Below the pieces are notes generated by a model. It was given only the letters and a program-made list of their open reading frames with translations. It was not told where the DNA came from and searched no databases. Both the position numbers and the translations under genes were made by a program. Of a DNA stretch of 5,804 bases, positions 1 through 5,804 are shown one piece after another; within the stretch, counting starts at the first letter, position 1, and each line of letters starts with the position of its first letter. Source of the DNA: a virus; the IMG/VR virus record IMGVR_UViG_3300045988_063657, positions 1 to 5,804 of that record; one strand, given 5' to 3'.

Positions 1-119
1 GTTTTTTTTTTTTTGGTAAAATTGACATAGAGAGCCGGCGCCAGAAAACGAAAGGAGAAAGCACTGCCTCCGGCGCCGGTGATCTGTGCTTCAATTCTAT
101 TTTTACAAATCTGAAAAGA
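1..119. repeat. Terminal direct repeat, copy 1 (circular-assembly overlap)
   Basis: G + T13 + GGTAAAATTGACATAGAGAGCCGGCGCC...CTGAAAAGA read base by base is identical to 5686..5804. Confidence 0.95.
34..80. repeat. GC-rich inverted repeat / hairpin in the main intergenic region
   Basis: CCGGCGCC at 35..42 pairs with GGCGCCGG at 72..79 (8 bp, plus a G:T at 34/80). An inner GGAG 54..57 pairs with CTCC 68..71. 70..79 CCGGCGCCGG is itself a perfect 10-bp palindrome. The flanks are AT-rich. Confidence 0.6.
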
Positions 120-133
120 AAGGAGGTGTTGCA

Positions 134-238
134 ATGATTACTATTAAGGAGATCAAGGGCATCTTTAATCAGCTGCGCAAGATCCTAGCCATGCTGGACA
201 AGATCTATCACGCAATGGGACTGGACAAGGAGGAATAA
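134..238 (+). CDS. Hypothetical 34-aa protein (MITIKEIKGIFNQLRKILAMLDKIYHAMGLDKEE), predicted amphipathic helix
   Basis: ATG at 134 lies 7 nt after AGGAGG (121..126). The TAA at 236..238 is 1 nt before the next ATG, suggesting coupled translation. It is too short for the supplied ORF track. I recognise no homology. Confidence 0.5.
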   Translation: MITIKEIKGIFNQLRKILAMLDKIYHAMGLDKEE

Positions 239-239
239 T

Positions 240-359
240 ATGGCTCACAGAATGCCGGTCAACCCGAAAAAGGACAAGCGAGTGTTTACGAACACCGCGA
301 AGAAAACCAAGAAAATCAATGTCAATCCGAAGCCGTCGCGTGGCGGGATCCGACTGTAA
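240..359 (+). CDS. VP8: Small basic DNA-binding/packaging protein (gokushovirus VP8, phiX174 J-like), 39 aa
   Basis: MAHRMPVNPKKDKRVFTNTAKKTKKINVNPKPSRGGIRL has 12 Lys/Arg in 39 aa. The C-terminal RGGIRL matches the RGGIR(L/M) tail I recall for gokushovirus ORF8 proteins. AGGAGG 228..233 lies 6 nt before the ATG. Confidence 0.75.
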   Translation: MAHRMPVNPKKDKRVFTNTAKKTKKINVNPKPSRGGIRL

Positions 360-456
360 AGGAGAAACAATATAGTAGACATCCTACAGAGCACAACAAT
401 CGTGCTCATCGCCGCATACATCATCATGAACGAGATCAGAAATTGGAGGAAGTAAG

Positions 457-720
457 ATGGAATATCAGGTTTACGCAATCAAAGATGAACTGGCAGGGAC
501 CTTCGGCAATCTCATGGTGGTCAACGAGAAGGTGGCCGAACGGACGATGAAGTGGATGGCCCAGGAGATGGAGAAGGCCGACTGCGAGGATAAGCGGGTC
601 TATCTGCTGGGCAGCTATGACAACGAAACCGGCCTGATCAGGCCAGAGCAGCTGCCGCGCCTGATGTACAATCTCGAGCTGATGAAGAAGGAGCAGACGA
701 ATGGGAGTCAGAATCTTTAA
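457..720 (+). CDS. VP5: Gokushovirus VP5-like nonstructural protein, 87 aa
   Basis: GGAGGA 445..450 lies 6 nt before the ATG. The N-terminal YQVYAIKDELAGTFGNLMVVNEKVAERTM and the later YLLGSYDNETGLI...PRL follow the pattern I recall for ORF5 proteins (V.D.K...F..P......A.R.F ... L..G.FD..TG). The position just upstream of VP3 is typical. Confidence 0.65.
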   Translation: MEYQVYAIKDELAGTFGNLMVVNEKVAERTMKWMAQEMEKADCEDKRVYLLGSYDNETGLIRPEQLPRLMYNLELMKKEQTNGSQNL

Positions 721-1198
721 GCCCTACGAGGACGAAAAACCGGCTGCACTGCCGAACGACCCGGGAAACCGGTTTGAGCCGGAGTACAAAGAGCGCTATG
801 ATGACCGCGGACAGCCGTACCTTGAAAAGGTCGGCGAGGTGGACACATACGAAAAAATCCAGAGCTACAAGGACGAATGCGACGTCATGGCTATCCTGAG
901 CCGGTATGCTGCCGGAGACGAAAATGTCTTGGCAAAGCCGGGCTGGTACATCGACACCAGCCGTCTGCCGCAGACCTACACGGAGTATATGAACCTCATG
1001 AACGAAAAGCGGGAAGAGTTTAATCAGCTGCCGCTCTCCATCCGTCAGGCATTCGGCATGAACTTCGAAAACTGGATGGCAACGGCCGGTGAACAGGAGT
1101 GGCTGGAGAAAATGGGCATCAAAATTCAGCAGAATGCACAGGAAAAGGAAGCTGCAGCAACCGAAACCATTGTGCAGAAAGGAGAAAATAAAGAATGA
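701..1198 (+). CDS. VP3: Internal scaffolding protein VP3, 165 aa
   Basis: AAGGAG 688..693 lies 7 nt before the ATG. It overlaps the VP5-like ORF by 20 nt, and its TGA overlaps the VP1 ATG (ATGA at 1195..1198). Motifs QSYKDECDVMAILSRY and FNQLPLSIRQAFGMNFENW match the conserved core of gokushovirus scaffold proteins. The C-terminus is acidic. Confidence 0.8.
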   Translation: MGVRIFKPYEDEKPAALPNDPGNRFEPEYKERYDDRGQPYLEKVGEVDTYEKIQSYKDECDVMAILSRYAAGDENVLAKPGWYIDTSRLPQTYTEYMNLMNEKREEFNQLPLSIRQAFGMNFENWMATAGEQEWLEKMGIKIQQNAQEKEAAATETIVQKGENKE

Positions 1199-2856
1199 AC
1201 CGCAATGCTGAACAGCACTATTCGCAGGTGCCTCATGCAAACGTGCCGCGCGCACGCTTCAAGCGGGACTATTCCTTGCTTACCACGATGAACGAAGGCG
1301 ACCTGGTCCCGATCTACTGCGATGAGGTATTGCCGGCCGACACGGCAAAAATCGATCTCAATGCTCTGATGCGCATGAGCACCCCGCTGTTTCCTGTTAT
1401 GGATAACTGCTACTGTGACTTTTACTTCTTCTTCGTACCGTCGCGCTTGCTGTGGGAGCACTTCGAAAACCTGATGGGGCAAAACGACTCTACTTTCTGG
1501 GCAGAGCCTGTGGAGTACACAACTCCTAAAACGACTGCACCGTCTGGCGGCTGGAACGTAGGAACGCTGGCAGATTACTTCGGGATCCCGACCGGGATAG
1601 CAAACCTTCAGGTGAACTCGCTGCCGTTCCGGGCATATGCCAAGATCTGGAACGAATGGTTCCGAGACGAAAACCTGCAGCAGCCTGTCACGATGAGCAA
1701 GACGGACGCAACCACGACCGGCAGCAACACCGGAACAAACCTCACAGACGCAGAAGCAGGCGGTCTGCCGCTGAAAGTCTGCAAGTACAAGGATTACTTC
1801 ACAAGCTGCCTGCCGAATCCGCAAAAAGGAAACGCGGTAACACTGCCGATGACTGGTAACGCACCGATAGAAGCATATCTCGATACAGACATGACAAAAG
1901 AAGCAGGCTGGTTAAAACAAAAATCGAACGGACACGTAAGCTACCCATGGGCATGGGACGAAAGCGAAAAAGCAACGCTAATGCAAAACGGCTCGATGGA
2001 AGGAGTCATCTTAAACGATGACTATTTATTTAGCGACCAATACGGCAACGAAACAAGTGATAAGGCATACATCGGCGCAAACCTGAGCAAAATACAAGCA
2101 ACAACCATCAACGAACTCCGTCAGGCCATCGCAGTGCAACACATCCTGGAACGCGATGCACGAACCGGCACCCGGTACAAAGAGTACCTGCAGGGAGCTT
2201 GGGGCGTGACCAGCCCGGATGCACGTCTTGACCGGTCGGAGTACATCGGCGGCTACAGACTGCCGATCAACATCAATCAGGTTATCCAGACGTCGGCAAC
2301 CGACACGACCAGTCCGCAGGGCAACACAGCAGCGTTCTCCATGACCACAATGAGCCGAAACATGGCTACCTACTCAGCAACGGAGCACGGCTTTATCATC
2401 GGTCTGGCAGCGGTCAGAGTTGATCACAGCTATCAGCAGGGACTGCCTCGTATGTGGACGCGCAGCACACGCTTTAGCTACTATGATCCGATGCTGGCAA
2501 ACCTGGGCGAACAGGCGGTTCTTAATCAGGAGATCTATGCACAGGGCAACGCACAGGACGAAGAAGTCTTTGGCTATCAGGAAGCCTGGGCCGATTACAG
2601 ATACCACATCAACATGATCACCGGAGAAATGCGCAGCACCTACTCTAAAACTCTGGACGCATGGCACTACGCAGACAAATACGATAAATTGCCCAAACTG
2701 TCCAGCGACTGGATCAAAGAAGGTACGGAAAACATTGACCGGACGATCGCAGTGCAAAGCGAAAAAAGCCGCCAGTTTATCTGCAACTTCTATTTTGACC
2801 AAACCTGGACGCGAGCGATGCCGATCTACAGCCTGCCGGGCCTTGATACGATCTAA
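1195..2856 (+). CDS. VP1: Major capsid protein VP1 (phiX174 F-like), 553 aa
   Basis: The largest ORF. N-terminal HYSQVP...PRARFKRDYSLLTTMNEGDLVPIYCDEVLPADT, DYFTSCLPNPQKG and TINELRQAIAVQHILERDARTGTRY are hallmark Microviridae capsid motifs. AAAGGAGAAA at 1178..1187 lies upstream. Confidence 0.95.
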   Translation: MNRNAEQHYSQVPHANVPRARFKRDYSLLTTMNEGDLVPIYCDEVLPADTAKIDLNALMRMSTPLFPVMDNCYCDFYFFFVPSRLLWEHFENLMGQNDSTFWAEPVEYTTPKTTAPSGGWNVGTLADYFGIPTGIANLQVNSLPFRAYAKIWNEWFRDENLQQPVTMSKTDATTTGSNTGTNLTDAEAGGLPLKVCKYKDYFTSCLPNPQKGNAVTLPMTGNAPIEAYLDTDMTKEAGWLKQKSNGHVSYPWAWDESEKATLMQNGSMEGVILNDDYLFSDQYGNETSDKAYIGANLSKIQATTINELRQAIAVQHILERDARTGTRYKEYLQGAWGVTSPDARLDRSEYIGGYRLPININQVIQTSATDTTSPQGNTAAFSMTTMSRNMATYSATEHGFIIGLAAVRVDHSYQQGLPRMWTRSTRFSYYDPMLANLGEQAVLNQEIYAQGNAQDEEVFGYQEAWADYRYHINMITGEMRSTYSKTLDAWHYADKYDKLPKLSSDWIKEGTENIDRTIAVQSEKSRQFICNFYFDQTWTRAMPIYSLPGLDTI

Positions 2857-2868
2857 GGGGGTGCAGAT

Positions 2869-3795
2869 ATGGCACTCGCATTAGGGGCAGCGATAAAAGC
2901 CGGACTGGGCATAGCAAGCACACTGGCAAGCATCTACAGCACTATCAGAGGGAGCACATCGAGCGCACGACAGCAAGGCACGATGCAAAACACTATACAA
3001 AGCGGTACGACCATGGGAAGCACCGCGCAGGACACCACAAGCACGGGAGTAAGCACTCAGACAGGCAACACCGGAGCACTGGGCAATCTACTGTCAACGG
3101 CGCTTGGAACGCCGACCGGCAATAACGCCGGAGACGCCGCACAGTTTAACGCCGGACAAGCACAAACGGCCAACAACCTTCAGGGAGCACAATGGAATCT
3201 GGGCAATCTCATCAATATGGGCAGTATGCTGGCATCCAACGCGATGAGTGCAGCAAGCCAAAGCAGCGCAATGCGATACAACTCCAAAGAGGCCAAAGCT
3301 CAAAGAGACTGGCAAGAACGCATGAGCAGCACCAGCTACCAGAGAGGGGTCAAAGACCTCGAAGCAGCGGGGCTTAACCCGGTACTGGCAGCATACAACG
3401 GCTTCGGAGCACAAACGCCGTCAGGCGGCTACGGGAGCCTTGGCGGGGGGCAGACCTTCGGTCATACTCAGGCTATGGCAATACCGGCCGCAAAGAATGC
3501 GAACATGCAAGCCATGTACGATTATGGAAACAACACAGCCCAGATCGTGGAGAACTTCCAAGCAGCAATCAACAGCGCAAAACAAACGTCAGACTATCGA
3601 ACGGTTGAACACCTGGAACAGATGCAGCAGCAGACCGTAAGCAGCAGCGCAAAGACCGTGGGCCAGCTGGCAGAGGCCGGCAGAAGCAGCAGCGCTCAGA
3701 CCTCGACCACCAAAGAAAACACCGACAGCAAACAGGTCAACGTAGGCGGTGAAGTGTCCGGCGAGTGGACAAACAAAAAAGACCGCAGAAGATAG
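2869..3795 (+). CDS. VP2: DNA pilot / minor capsid protein VP2 (phiX174 H-like), 308 aa
   Basis: It lies immediately after VP1. AGGGGGTG 2856..2863 is 5 nt before the ATG. The protein is low-complexity (Gly/Ala/Ser/Thr/Gln/Asn-rich) with a central SYQRGVKDLEAAGLNPVLAAY motif typical of gokushovirus VP2. Confidence 0.85.
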   Translation: MALALGAAIKAGLGIASTLASIYSTIRGSTSSARQQGTMQNTIQSGTTMGSTAQDTTSTGVSTQTGNTGALGNLLSTALGTPTGNNAGDAAQFNAGQAQTANNLQGAQWNLGNLINMGSMLASNAMSAASQSSAMRYNSKEAKAQRDWQERMSSTSYQRGVKDLEAAGLNPVLAAYNGFGAQTPSGGYGSLGGGQTFGHTQAMAIPAAKNANMQAMYDYGNNTAQIVENFQAAINSAKQTSDYRTVEHLEQMQQQTVSSSAKTVGQLAEAGRSSSAQTSTTKENTDSKQVNVGGEVSGEWTNKKDRRR

Positions 3796-3824
3796 TTGAC
3801 AAACACAGAAAAGAGGTGTATATT
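3796..3824 (+). promoter_or_regulatory. Sigma70-type promoter for the RHH-VP4 unit: TTGACA (3796..3801), 17 nt, TATATT (3819..3824)
   Basis: Perfect -35, exact 17-nt spacer, 5/6 -10. It starts 1 nt after the VP2 stop and lies about 40 nt upstream of the RHH ATG. It is paralogous to the promoter at 5425. Confidence 0.75.
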
Positions 3825-3847
3825 ATGAGTGTACCAATCACACACTT
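3813..3847. promoter_or_regulatory. Operator-like repeats over the -10 and transcription start: two direct RGTGTA copies 13 bp apart plus one inverted copy
   Basis: GGTGTA at 3815..3820 and AGTGTA at 3828..3833 (GTGTA starts at 3816 and 3829). AGTGT 3828..3832 and ACACT 3842..3846 form an imperfect palindrome, TGAGTGT/ACACTTA. The same motif and spacing recur at the 5425 promoter. Confidence 0.55.
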
Positions 3848-3864
3848 AAGTTAGGAGTAAAACT

Positions 3865-4068
3865 ATGAAGAGCCAGATTGCAAAGAGAATCAACATCAAT
3901 TTGACCGACAGAGAGCAAATAGCACTGGAAAACCTCGAACAAGAAATGGCAAACAGAGGGTGGAAAATGACCACCAGCGACATTATCAGAGAAGCAATAG
4001 TAAACTACTGCGAAAAGGAAACGGGATACACATTCGCCAATGAGTGGAAGCTCAGAGAAACGAAGTGA
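3865..4068 (+). CDS. Ribbon-helix-helix (CopG/Arc/MetJ-type) DNA-binding protein, 67 aa
   Basis: AGGAG 3853..3857 lies 7 nt before the ATG. KRININL has the alternating pattern of a beta-strand. It is followed by helix TDREQIALENLEQEMANRG, a turn, then helix TSDIIREAIVNYCEK. This closely parallels my recollection of pMV158 CopG (KKRLTITLSESVLENLEKMAREMGLSKSAMISVALENYKK). Confidence 0.7.
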   Translation: MKSQIAKRININLTDREQIALENLEQEMANRGWKMTTSDIIREAIVNYCEKETGYTFANEWKLRETK

Positions 4069-4089
4069 CCGGGGAGACCCGGCCACTTC
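4062..4089 (+). other. Hairpin overlapping the RHH stop codon, with a GAGA tetraloop
   Basis: GAAGTG 4062..4067 pairs with CACTTC 4084..4089. CCGGG 4069..4073 pairs with CCCGG 4078..4082. There is one A/C mismatch (4068/4083), and the loop is GAGA 4074..4077. A T7 run sits at 4109..4115, 20 nt downstream rather than adjacent. Confidence 0.55.
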
Positions 4090-4136
4090 TGCAACATTTA
4101 TCCATAGGTTTTTTTGAGCAAGAGCTAAATTTTGTG

Positions 4137-4181
4137 TCAATGGGCCCCTATAACATCAAGAGGGTTATAGGGGCCCATTGA
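4137..4181. repeat. Perfect 18-bp inverted repeat (hairpin) with a 9-nt loop, between the RHH and Rep genes
   Basis: TCAATGGGCCCCTATAAC 4137..4154 is the exact reverse complement of GTTATAGGGGCCCATTGA 4164..4181. The loop is ATCAAGAGG 4155..4163. No T-tract follows. Confidence 0.9.
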
Positions 4182-4202
4182 GGAAAGGCGCAGCGAAACT
4201 AT

Positions 4203-5312
4203 ATGTCATGTACGAGACCGCTCATCAGAATACCGACAAGCGACGGAGATTTCCGCGTAGTAAGCCTGAAAGGATACTTAAACCACAGCGGAAAGAACCT
4301 GGAATTTATCGCGGATAAAGAGCGTCAAGATCTGAACGAGAAAAAAATCAAAGAGCTGATAAAAACTCAAGAAGCGCAGCTGCTACCGTGCGGACAATGT
4401 CCAGGATGCAAAATGGCAGCTGCGTCCAGCTGGGCAAACAGAATGGAGCTAGAGCTGCCATACCATCAAAACGCATGGTTCATCACGTTTACATACGATG
4501 ACGATAATGTGCCATACCGGATGACATGGGACGAAGGGACCGGCGAAGTACTAGTAGAAAATTACAGTCTACGATATGAGGATATGCAAAAGTTCTGGAA
4601 ACGCCTGAGAAGGTACATGGATTATCACAAGATAAACAACGGAAAACTGATGTACTTCCAATGTGGTGAATATGGCGGAAAAACACACAGACCACATTAT
4701 CATGCAATAGTTTACGATATACCGTTCAAAAAAGACGAGTTGAAGATCTACAAAAAGAAAAACGGCGCTGTATATTACAACGTCGATTGGATAACGGACC
4801 TGTGGGGAATGGGTCATGTGGTCATCGCAGCAGCAGAGTGGAAAGCGATGGCATACACAGCAAGATACACCACAAAGAAGGTTTATGGAAAGGAAGGAAA
4901 AGAATTTTACAAAGAGCTGGGAATCTTACCTGAAAAGTGTAACATGAGCAAAAGACCAGCGATCGGAGCAAAATACTTTGAAGAACATAGCGCAGAAATC
5001 TATGAAAAAGACAAAATCCAGCTGAAGAACGGAAAAGTTTGTAAACCGCCGAGATATTTTGATAAGCTATACGATGCACAGTGTCTAAAAAAACCACTCT
5101 CAGACAAAGAGGTAGAAGACATTGAGCTAGTAATAGAAAAAGCCGAGTCCGATGAGCTCAAAGCGATAAAGAGAAAACGTCGTAAGTTAGCAAATGACGC
5201 ACTCTTCGCCAGGCTCAAGCAGAACAACGGCTTAACCATGCAAGAGTATTATAGCAAAGAGGAACAGAAAATACAAGACAGGTTCAGAAAGCTAATCCGG
5301 GAAGAAATCTAA
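4203..5312 (+). CDS. VP4: Rolling-circle replication initiator VP4 (HUH endonuclease, phiX174 A-like), 369 aa
   Basis: Motif 1 is FITFTYDD (from 4479). The HUH motif is RPHYHAIVY (CAT TAT CAT at 4695..4703). The double-tyrosine motif is YTARYTTKK (Y218 at 4854, Y222 at 4866). CGQCPGCK followed by SWANR is typical of microvirus Rep. The SD is weak or distant (GGAAAGG ends 14 nt before the ATG). Confidence 0.92.
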   Translation: MSCTRPLIRIPTSDGDFRVVSLKGYLNHSGKNLEFIADKERQDLNEKKIKELIKTQEAQLLPCGQCPGCKMAAASSWANRMELELPYHQNAWFITFTYDDDNVPYRMTWDEGTGEVLVENYSLRYEDMQKFWKRLRRYMDYHKINNGKLMYFQCGEYGGKTHRPHYHAIVYDIPFKKDELKIYKKKNGAVYYNVDWITDLWGMGHVVIAAAEWKAMAYTARYTTKKVYGKEGKEFYKELGILPEKCNMSKRPAIGAKYFEEHSAEIYEKDKIQLKNGKVCKPPRYFDKLYDAQCLKKPLSDKEVEDIELVIEKAESDELKAIKRKRRKLANDALFARLKQNNGLTMQEYYSKEEQKIQDRFRKLIREEI

Positions 5313-5335
5313 AGAACGGCTGAATAAGGGAATGC

Positions 5336-5371
5336 AGACGGCGTGGCTACGAAAGGCTACGCCGTCTTCTT
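5336..5371 (+). terminator. Putative intrinsic terminator after VP4
   Basis: AGACGGCGT 5336..5344 pairs with ACGCCGTCT 5359..5367 (9 bp). In RNA the stem extends by G:U, G:C, C:G and U:G pairs to a 6-nt loop, ACGAAA. It is followed by a pyrimidine-rich CTTCTTC rather than a clean U-tract. Confidence 0.45.
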
Positions 5372-5376
5372 CGTAC

Positions 5377-5395
5377 GGCCCGGGGCGGCCGGGCC
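5377..5395. repeat. 7-bp all-GC hairpin
   Basis: GGCCCGG 5377..5383 pairs with CCGGGCC 5389..5395. The loop is GGCGG. Confidence 0.6.
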
Positions 5396-5424
5396 TAGCA
5401 GACGGCCTTAAACTCAAAAAGTGC

Positions 5425-5453
5425 TTGACAAATGTACAATTTAGGTGTATAAT
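5425..5453 (+). promoter_or_regulatory. Consensus sigma70 promoter: TTGACA (5425..5430), 17 nt, TATAAT (5448..5453)
   Basis: Both hexamers are perfect and the spacing is optimal, in an intergenic region. It shares TTGACAAA and AGGTGTATA.TA with the 3796 promoter. Confidence 0.8.
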
Positions 5454-5480
5454 AAAGGTGTAGAAAGGAAGTGTACAAAG
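5429..5480 (+). repeat. Four tandem 13-bp iteron-like units, consensus nARRTGTAnAAWn
   Basis: The units are caaATGTAcaatt (5429..5441), tagGTGTAtaata (5442..5454), aagGTGTAgaaag (5455..5467) and gaaGTGTAcaaag (5468..5480). Seven of 13 positions are invariant, and the TGTA cores are exactly 13 bp apart. The array spans from inside the spacer through the -10 to the ATG of the next ORF. Confidence 0.65.
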
Positions 5481-5481
5481 C

Positions 5482-5649
5482 ATGGAAAACCTATACAAAG
5501 ACCTCGACACCGAAACGCTCAACTGGATGGACTACAGATATGAACATTGCGACGGCGCTTGTGAAAAATGTCCGTGCCACGATGTAAGCTATTATTGCAG
5601 CTACATCCACGACCAAGTCAGAAAAGAGCTTAACCGGCGAGGGGAATAA
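5482..5649 (+). CDS. Hypothetical 55-aa Cys/His-rich protein, putatively metal-binding
   Basis: MENLYKDLDTETLNWMDYRYEHCDGACEKCPCHDVSYYCSYIHDQVRKELNRRGE carries the cluster H-C-x3-C-x2-C-x-C-H-x5-C-x3-H. It lies between a consensus promoter and an intrinsic terminator. AAAGGAAG 5464..5471 is 10 nt before the ATG. It is below the size cutoff of the ORF track. Confidence 0.55.
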   Translation: MENLYKDLDTETLNWMDYRYEHCDGACEKCPCHDVSYYCSYIHDQVRKELNRRGE

Positions 5650-5652
5650 ACC

Positions 5653-5699
5653 AAAAAACGTGAGGTTGACGAAAAACAGCCTTGCGTTTTTTTTTTTTT
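5653..5699 (+). terminator. Intrinsic terminator: A6, hairpin, T13
   Basis: The stem pairs 5659..5668 with 5677..5686 (10 bp, including 3 G:U wobbles) around an 8-nt loop. A6 (5653..5658) lies upstream and an uninterrupted T13 (5687..5699) directly downstream. It starts 4 nt after the stop of the Cys-rich ORF. Confidence 0.6.
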
Positions 5700-5804
5700 G
5701 GTAAAATTGACATAGAGAGCCGGCGCCAGAAAACGAAAGGAGAAAGCACTGCCTCCGGCGCCGGTGATCTGTGCTTCAATTCTATTTTTACAAATCTGAA
5801 AAGA
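5686..5804. repeat. Terminal direct repeat, copy 2 (circular-assembly overlap)
   Basis: Identical to 1..119. Confidence 0.95.

Follow-up and report, generated by a model that had tools for sequence, protein, structure and literature searches.

The locus considered here raises the question of why the only perfect sigma-70 promoter of a small phage genome is covered by evenly spaced copies of a short motif. The window, i.e., the whole stretch of 5,804 nucleotides that was analysed (positions 1 to 5,804 of IMG/VR record IMGVR_UViG_3300045988_063657), holds in full the circular, 5,685-bp genome of a gokushovirus-type microvirus, with a terminal redundancy of 119 nt (1–119 = 5686–5804). The promoter, P2, and its array of repeats (site 2, 5425–5480) precede an open reading frame (ORF) of 55 amino acids (aa), and a similar array (site 1) lies on P1, the promoter of a gene for a 67-aa protein resembling ribbon-helix-helix (RHH) repressors. 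With moderate confidence, site 2 is read here as the promoter of an anti-defence cassette of the acr (anti-CRISPR) type, which would be repressed in trans by the RHH protein, an Aca-like (anti-CRISPR-associated) regulator that would also autoregulate the operon formed by its own gene and that of the replication initiator (Rep, VP4). The narrower statement, that site 2 is an RHH operator on a cassette promoter, is held with higher confidence, and an anti-defence role of the window's own 55-aa product, the cargo of the cassette, with less confidence than the reading as a whole.

Promoter P2 and its phased cores

In a consensus scan, P2 was the sole 12/12 match to the sigma-70 promoter in the window, with TTGACA and TATAAT separated by 17 nt, just as the initial annotation had described it. 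From the usual distance of 6–7 nt downstream of the -10 hexamer, transcription is predicted to start near 5460; for P1, the predicted start is near 3831. On the + strand, copies of the pentamer RTGTA are found at 5432, 5445, 5458 and 5471, with a period of exactly 13 bp. Of the pattern RTGTA-N8-RTGTA, the window has four occurrences (three of them overlapping pairs at site 2, the other at site 1, at 3816/3829) where 0.01 are expected, and 0 of 200 shuffled sequences reached four occurrences; the phased array is far beyond chance.

The array had been described as four tandem 13-bp units in which seven of the 13 columns are invariant and which end 1 nt ahead of the start codon. The period, the invariant columns (by direct reading) and the position were borne out, since the fourth unit extends to 5480, with the ATG at 5482. 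The unit itself had to be revised: copies are not recognisable across the whole 13 bp, the true repeated element being a core of 6–7 bp, and the fourth copy is linked to the cargo. Tandem Repeats Finder reported nothing at 5425–5480, and a generic repeat finder gave two copies only; such tools miss the array because only the short core repeats. Between the Shine-Dalgarno sequence AAAGGA (5464–5469) and the ATG there is a rather long distance of about 12 nt. Two GTGTA copies were also seen on the minus strand of the VP4 coding region (4854–4870), with a spacing of 12 bp, not 13.

P1 and P2 were found to have the same layout, in which 6-nt slots begin at +6, +19 (on the -10), +32 (at the predicted start) and +45, counted from the first base of the -35 hexamer. 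This geometry bears on the term iterons, under which the repeats had been introduced and which would make them replication-initiator sites or a complementary-strand origin signal. Plasmid and phage iterons are likewise short direct repeats with a fixed period, the array lies a short way from where the Rep gene ends, and phages with single-stranded DNA (ssDNA) need minus-strand origin signals. However, iterons bind the initiator at the origin, whereas here both arrays are locked to promoter hexamers at fixed offsets, the second lies 1.6 kb away on the RHH promoter, and some relatives do without P2 and its array. When site 2 was folded as ssDNA, the structure was not significant (z -1.6), and a structural or origin role was dropped; a likely origin-type hairpin lies elsewhere, at 4141–4177. 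No link of the array to an origin or to Rep was found, the label was given up, and an iteron function is scarcely credible.

Conservation of the cores in related microviruses

The window was compared with 56 distinct RHH-encoding microviruses from GenBank, IMG/VR and public assemblies, whose VP1 proteins are 66–97% identical to that of the window, and with a contrast set of 23 microviruses lacking the RHH gene; individual genomes and contigs are given L numbers where needed. Slot statistics refer to 35 distinct site-2 and 51 distinct site-1 sequences. Site 1 was present in 56/56 of the RHH-encoding genomes and site 2 in about 35/56, while RTGTA-N8-RTGTA was absent from both strands of all 23 RHH-less genomes, three of which have a homolog of the window's Cys-rich cargo ORF behind a different promoter. 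Conversely, all microvirus contigs bearing the three-core P2 also encode the RHH protein. In the motif by which the array was to be sought in relatives, nARRTGTAnAAWn, the "aa" columns that are invariant in the window's units are not conserved, and the core RRGTGTA is kept instead. Pooling of 258 sub-sites from relatives gave this core as purine, purine, G96, T98, G99, T98 and A84/G14, with unconstrained flanks. It may also be inverted (TACACY); as a hexamer, each copy stands 13 bp centre to centre from its neighbour in either orientation.

At site 2, the first three slots hold direct cores that are perfect in most of the sequences (Table 1). In the fourth slot, a direct AGTGTA occurs only in genomes with the window's Cys-rich ORF (the window and L129–L131), an inverted CACACC or CACACT is found at the same offset in six relatives, and most have nothing there. 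The cores are 93–97% conserved, compared with 69% for the 7-nt spacer between slots 1 and 2. As this contrast lies inside the promoter spacer, which is normally unconstrained, it argues for selection on the cores themselves. At site 1, the relatives show a weak first slot followed by GGTGTA-N7-RGTGTA-N7-YACACY; slots 2 and 3 are perfect in 51/51 sequences, and the inverted slot 4 matches in at least 5/6 positions in 49/51. The P1 layout is kept by all RHH homologs examined, which range from 35 to 97% in identity to the protein of the window, and the 35%-identical homolog, on the short contig L095, has TTGACA-GGTGTA-N7-GGTGTA-N7-GGTGTA...TACAC.

It might be supposed that the motif has no regulatory function, P2 having been duplicated from P1 with its promoter context inherited. 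The identical layouts of P1 and P2 fit such an origin, slot 2 overlaps the -10 and would be constrained anyway, and unrelated phage contigs show TTGACA-N-RTGTA-N8-RTGTATAAT at roughly the number expected given that consensus promoters are common. Against this stand the conservation of slots 1 and 3, which are normally free positions (93–96% versus 69% in the adjacent spacer), the inverted copy that keeps the exact 13-bp spacing in P1 and in some P2 variants, and the fact that the unrelated phage matches are without a third core. Mere inheritance of a promoter is very improbable on these grounds. About 28 non-microvirus contigs with the two-core promoter pattern were set aside as chance matches among abundant consensus promoters, being without both the third core and an RHH gene.

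The exchangeable cassette behind P2

Across the clade, at least nine unrelated small ORFs were found to occupy the slot between the conserved promoter and a conserved terminator. The four closest GenBank relatives keep promoter and terminator, with a different small ORF in each. In L024 and L053 the cargo is a homolog of the anti-CRISPR protein AcrIC5, with a full-length match to Pfam PF22147 (91.9 bits, cutoff 27; E 2.7e-26) and a match to the solved AcrIC5 structure (PDB 7YHR) with E 1.1e-11. Diverged AcrIC5 homologs, 73–75% identical, were found at the same position in three further microviruses (L158, L159 and L160) from precomputed PF22147 matches. L158 is 86–91% identical to the window over 1–5465, after which AcrIC5 replaces the Cys-rich ORF, and homology returns at the terminator; L159 and L160 show the same exchange. 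The breakpoint near 5465 places the left edge of the cassette just after slot 3, which is the last conserved element ahead of it, and the fourth unit hence moves with the cargo. A homolog of a validated anti-CRISPR protein is thus found in this slot in L024, L053 and L158–L160 and not in the window, so that the window locus can be said to work like an acr–aca locus but is not a proven acr locus.

The commonest cargo is a family of about 52 aa (MKSYYEE..AAALYDGGWRS.D..EW..AICEKLKEYE) with no Pfam or PHROG match, carried by L009, L012, L013, L015, L016, L023, L025, L050, L058, L059, L061, L081 and L089; longer cargo variants in L049 and L052 contain its ALYDGGWR motif. For the other cargo families, Pfam and PHROG likewise gave no function. 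Gokushoviruses are known to have defensive hypervariable regions, and these were considered and ruled out as an identity for the slot, as the published ones lie in the pilot protein VP2. Homologs of the Cys-rich ORF were also noticed in RHH-less pig microviruses (L006 1170–1400, L007 1080–1300, L008 960–1160), where they lie behind a different strong promoter, TTGACT...TGTGGTAGAAT; the many GTTGAAA(A) or GTGGAAAA repeats upstream of it may form another kind of array, for regulation or as an origin. The contig L161 (2712–3174), from a tailed phage with holin and GH25/choline-binding lysin genes, has an AcrIC5 homolog next to a 63-aa HTH_3 gene; the promoter ahead of the AcrIC5 homolog, TTGACA-17-TATAAT, has the palindrome ACACACGTGTGT in the spacer, which is the classical acr–aca layout.

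A cassette terminator is conserved behind every cargo type, and the pair of terminator-like hairpins between VP4 and P2 is kept in relatives (Table 1). These elements are relevant to the proposal, made in the initial annotation, that P2 is the master switch of the phage, where a promoter that also supplies the structural operon by read-through would be under cooperative repression from four sites. The genes are all on the + strand, the window has no further strong sigma-70 promoter ahead of the structural genes, and the terminators of the microvirus phiX174 are leaky, which is a point in favour of read-through. Nevertheless, a strong U13 terminator follows the cargo directly, about 170 nt after P2, and the hairpin pair lies upstream. 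P2 is missing or decayed in 20/56 genomes with intact structural genes, including L125 and L126, whose RHH proteins are 96% identical to that of the window. Loss of the cargo goes with decay of the promoter: in L079 the hexamers read TTAACA/CATAAT and abut the terminator, in L080 a deletion runs into both the -10 and the ORF's 5' end, and in L102 the promoter is fused to a terminator hairpin. P1, on the other hand, is universal and in many relatives the sole promoter scoring at least 10/12. What P2 drives is a swappable accessory ORF, and the master switch was rejected as decidedly unlikely. Given this distribution, site 1 is likelier than site 2 to be central to the phage.

The putative RHH regulator

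The 67-aa protein was examined by profile and structure comparison, and an RHH fold is probable on this evidence. RHH_1 is the recurrent Pfam match of the family (14/36 members, best E 1e-4), 56B_RHH and CcdA also appear, and for the window protein itself DUF6290 was returned with E 0.031. An hhalign comparison to CopG gave E 2.3e-4 with a probability of 44% and 33% identity, in register; that to ParG was weak (E 2.8e-3, probability 11%), also in register. An AlphaFold2 model based on an alignment of 36 sequences had a mean predicted local distance difference test score (pLDDT) of 86.5, with residues 1–14 extended and helices at 15–30 and 37–53. This is the RHH topology of an N-terminal alternating strand followed by two helices, the strand forming in the dimer only. 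The alternation of polar and hydrophobic residues in K-R-I-N-I-N-L is that of KRLTITL in CopG. With only 17 close sequences, modelling gave a low pLDDT of 64, and Foldseek returned nothing but noise for that model. With the better model, the best low-rmsd (root mean square deviation) Foldseek matches include the RHH proteins NikR (2.4 Å over 46 columns), ParD2 (2.9 Å over 48), Arc and CdbA, all of them non-significant.

The N-terminal segment MKSQ..KRININLT is the most conserved part of the family, and R8, N10 and N12, which are putative reading residues, show little or no variation. The order of RHH gene followed by Rep gene is kept in all relatives with listed gene maps. A remote homolog (P0062), a single case from outside the microviruses, has the strand KQVQVRL and ATCAG repeats at its own promoter, which is suggestive of covariation between reading head and operator. 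Many RHH homologs, including those of L001–L003, L158 and L159, end in an acidic tail with LPF (...AISEEEDLPF, DKLPF, DNLPF, DELPF), while the window copy ends ...FANEWKLRETK, without such a tail. The LPF tail of the homologs is similar to DDDIPF, the C-terminal tip of the bacterial single-stranded DNA-binding protein (SSB), and may be a mimic of this partner-binding tip.

The assignment of the cores to the RHH protein, proposed earlier, stands as a comparative one: the same core, phasing and -35 offsets recur on the RHH gene's promoter, and among the microviruses they do so in RHH-encoding ones only. A different binder could be imagined, such as a host regulator, VP5 or a basic 39-aa protein, with the RHH gene merely sharing the clade. 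The co-occurrence was seen within one clade, where linkage may be due to ancestry alone, and RHH fold and binding are only predicted; in addition, about 10 metagenome-assembled genomes (MAGs) of Eubacteriales have the site-1 core 19-mer GGTGTATAATATGGGTGTA ahead of a thioredoxin gene, at a distance of about 35 nt. On the other side, there is no genome of the set in which the array is not on the promoter of the RHH gene itself, where autoregulated RHH repressors have their standard operators, and it persists down to 35% RHH identity with a nearly invariant N-terminal strand. The 19-mer gave 25 hits in bacterial genomes where about 17 are expected by chance, all without RHH, VP1 or VP4, and the thioredoxin set is one homologous locus. 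A binder other than the RHH protein is therefore thought unlikely.

The MAGs of the thioredoxin locus belong to Eubacteriales/Clostridia (L135, L138, L144, L147, L149, L150, L153, L155 and L156); the presence of GGTGTATAATATGGGTGTA there is probably a coincidence, and these taxa are plausible hosts. No integrated copies were found when the genomes of 185,579 species were scanned with a protein pattern and the P1 core 19-mer, and a role as a lysogeny repressor was left without support.

Points weighing against the proposed regulation

Regulation of the cassette by the RHH protein, which remains the preferred reading, has to be set against a number of observations. Because the RHH-encoding genomes are a single clade, finding gene and motif together is not independent evidence in phylogenetic terms. 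For the window protein, RHH_1 is below threshold (E 0.088; 13.2 bits, cutoff 20.5), Foldseek of the pLDDT-86.5 model against the PDB gave no match at E ≤ 0.001, and when the PDB was searched with a profile of the family, no RHH entry came up. Some family members with F or Y in place of N12 (L050) keep the same cores, which weakens the assignment of the reading residues. A spacing of 13 bp turns successive sites by about 86 degrees around the helix, and RHH operators are known with spacings of 7, 8 or about 11 bp, unlike the 13 bp seen here; simple side-by-side cooperativity is therefore not obvious, and cooperative RHH binding at 13-bp phasing is regarded as possible. The regulator gene (3865–4068) lies outside the acr-type operon (5425–5699), with VP4 between them and a promoter of its own, unlike in classical acr–aca loci. 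Only 1 of the at least nine cargo families is recognisable as anti-defence, and the window's Cys-rich cargo had no match in Pfam, PHROG or PDB.

Proposed mechanism

From the sequence comparisons, we infer that the RHH protein would bind the cores, that binding would repress the promoters, and that expression of the cassette would follow a burst and then be shut off. When the DNA enters a cell in which no repressor is present, host sigma-70 RNA polymerase would fire both consensus promoters, P2 at full strength. This would give a burst of the small cargo protein, which is the 55-aa Cys-rich protein here and an AcrIC5 homolog in close relatives. Meanwhile, RHH protein would accumulate from P1, and its dimers would come to occupy the RRGTGTA cores from about -29 to +16, i.e., the spacer, the -10, the start site and the early transcribed region. 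Bound RHH protein would exclude RNA polymerase or stop its escape, and the cassette would be turned off. Repression of P1 by the same protein would constitute a self-limiting feedback, probably limiting the downstream Rep (VP4) too; in a parallel case, CopG limits RepB in pMV158-type rolling-circle plasmids. The terminators on both flanks would shield the neighbouring genes from the very strong P2.

Relation to known systems

By analogy, the nearest functional precedent is Aca14 of Pasteurella multocida, reported in July 2026 as a 66-aa RHH-type Aca set apart from earlier helix-turn-helix (HTH) Acas, which represses its own and a neighbouring anti-defence operon via repeats over the -10 (bioRxiv 10.64898/2026.07.27.740549). 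The two systems have in common a small RHH protein (predicted in the present case), similar repeats overlapping the -10 of its own and of a second promoter, and the control, putative here, of small anti-defence ORFs. In contrast to the single AT-rich inverted repeat per promoter of Aca14, there are three to four GT-rich, mostly direct cores at 13 bp here; the aca14 gene lies inside the anti-defence operon, whereas the RHH gene heads the Rep operon, about 1.6 kb from the cassette. The element here, a 5.7-kb ssDNA microvirus, is unlike that of Aca14, and the RHH family was compared with Aca14 by description only. In archaeal viruses, anti-defence genes have been found behind strong promoters with a regulatory motif common to the aca gene (PMC11065993).

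With the classical acr–aca loci, the window shares a strong consensus promoter overlapped by repeats (putative operators) that are also found at the regulator's own promoter, together with the AcrIC5 homolog in this slot in relatives. Such loci were reportedly described by Stanley and colleagues and by Birkholz and colleagues, both in 2019, for Aca1 of JBD30 and Aca2 of ZF40. They have a very strong, operator-covered acr promoter, an early burst followed by repression, and variable small acr cargo. Their regulators are HTH proteins encoded downstream of acr in the same operon, with inverted-repeat operators, which is not so here.

CopG-RepB of pMV158 (1b01, 2cpg) resembles the P1 side of the system. 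In profile comparisons, the RHH protein was matched best by CopG, and as at site 1, an RHH gene stands directly upstream of an HUH-type initiator, with operators over the promoter. The CopG operator differs in being a 13-bp pseudo-symmetric element with dimers on one DNA face, and we know of no second, trans-regulated cargo promoter in this system. Omega of pSM19035 and ParG of TP228 (1p94) show that one RHH protein may act on several promoters through arrays of short cores in either orientation, and the ParG strand KRVNVNF resembles KRININL. In both, the sub-sites follow one another without a break, as heptads of 7 bp or as boxes of 4 bp with spacers of 4 bp, and number 7–10 per array, whereas here a 6–7 bp core alternates with a 6–7 bp free spacer in three to four copies.

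The locus is best read as an anti-defence cassette promoter gated by an Aca-like RHH protein, a variant of a system type already known, in a virus family where it was not expected. To our knowledge, microviruses are textbook phages without transcription factors. A recent survey describes their accessory-gene repertoires as very limited (PMC9239249). Literature searches on Microviridae gave no relevant report of an RHH protein, CopG, repressor or operator, and a search for anti-CRISPRs in Microviridae, judged mostly from the titles listed, found none; an anti-CRISPR system and a phage-encoded transcription factor in Microviridae may both be firsts for the family. If the reading is correct, ssDNA phages of 5.7 kb run a timed, feedback-controlled early programme. 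The anti-CRISPR homolog in a swappable slot would put microviruses in the CRISPR arms race. The frame of promoter, operator and terminator marks unknown 50–80-aa proteins, which are hard to find by homology, as candidate anti-defence factors, and the operator motif would serve as a search handle for tiny anti-defence genes. The 13-bp phasing, as a putative and unusual RHH operator, would also be of interest for studies of DNA recognition. A wider proposal is put forward tentatively, with somewhat less than even confidence: that these viruses are a clade of gut gokushoviruses with a repressor-gated, exchangeable anti-defence slot, in which the other cargo families (at least eight, among them the window's Cys-rich protein and the common ALYDGGWR family) would be new anti-CRISPR or anti-defence proteins and the RHH protein a new Aca family throttling the Rep operon.

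Genome context and further hairpins

The nearest deposited genomes, at about 86% identity, are one human-gut gokushovirus and several pig-faeces gokushoviruses. The features of the window are collected in Table 1; the cassette terminator spans the junction of the circle.

Table 1 Coordinates of the features in the window (feature, positions, strand, remarks; distances are from the predicted start)
-35 hexamer of P2	5425–5430	+	TTGACA; 12/12 scan; 95% conserved in 35 distinct relatives
-10 hexamer of P2	5448–5453	+	TATAAT; consensus scan
Putative operator slot 1	5431–5436	+	AATGTA, 5/6 of RGTGTA; about -29 to -24, promoter spacer; 6/6 (AGTGTA) in 29/35 relatives
Putative operator slot 2	5444–5449	+	GGTGTA; about -16 to -11, overlaps first two -10 bases; 6/6 in 33/35
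Putative operator slot 3	5457–5462	+	GGTGTA; about -3 to +3, predicted start; 6/6 in 30/35
Putative operator slot 4	5470–5475	+	AGTGTA; about +11 to +16, 5' untranslated region; cargo-linked
Cargo ORF, 55 aa	5482–5649	+	Cys-rich (CxxxCxxCxC...C); candidate anti-defence protein
Intrinsic terminator after cargo	5653–5699	+	stem-loop and 13 T; RNA folding energy -20.7 kcal/mol, z -3.9
Two GC-rich hairpins 3' of VP4	5334–5395	+	terminator-like, first with T-rich tail; folding energy -48.2, z -4.55
RHH-like protein, 67 aa	3865–4068	+	proposed Aca-like repressor; predicted DNA-reading strand K7-R-I-N-I-N-L13
Site 1 (P1 of RHH gene)	3796–3846	+	TTGACA 3796–3801, TATATT 3819–3824; four slots
Site-1 slot 1	3802–3807	+	AACACA (weak)
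Site-1 slot 2	3815–3820	+	GGTGTA
Site-1 slot 3	3828–3833	+	AGTGTA
Site-1 slot 4	3841–3846	+	CACACT, inverted
Tiny ORF	134–238	+	
Tiny ORF	240–359	+	
VP5	457–720	+	
VP3 (scaffold)	701–1198	+	
VP1 (capsid)	1195–2856	+	
VP2 (pilot)	2869–3795	+	
VP4 (replication initiator, Rep)	4203–5312	+	Pfam REP_ORF2-G2P E 3.5e-15; PHROG 942 E 2e-98

An Rfam scan gave nothing meaningful anywhere in the window, and noise only in the region of the hairpin at 4141–4177. This hairpin, just upstream of VP4, has a near-perfect 13-bp stem (GGGCCCCTATAAC-N-GTTATAGGGGCCC) that is kept in close relatives, and may serve as a replication origin or be recognised by Rep. A hairpin resembling it is placed just 3' of VP4 in L006 and L007, which are distant genomes. 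A further conserved hairpin was observed at 33–78 (equal to 5718–5763), between the cassette terminator and the first ORF of the structural module. By eye, its outer stem shows compensating substitutions among relatives (CCGGCGCC/GGCGCCGG, CCAGCAC/GTGCTGG, CCAGAG/CTCTGG and CTGGCAG/CTGTCAG), and the inner GGAG...CTCC is constant among them.

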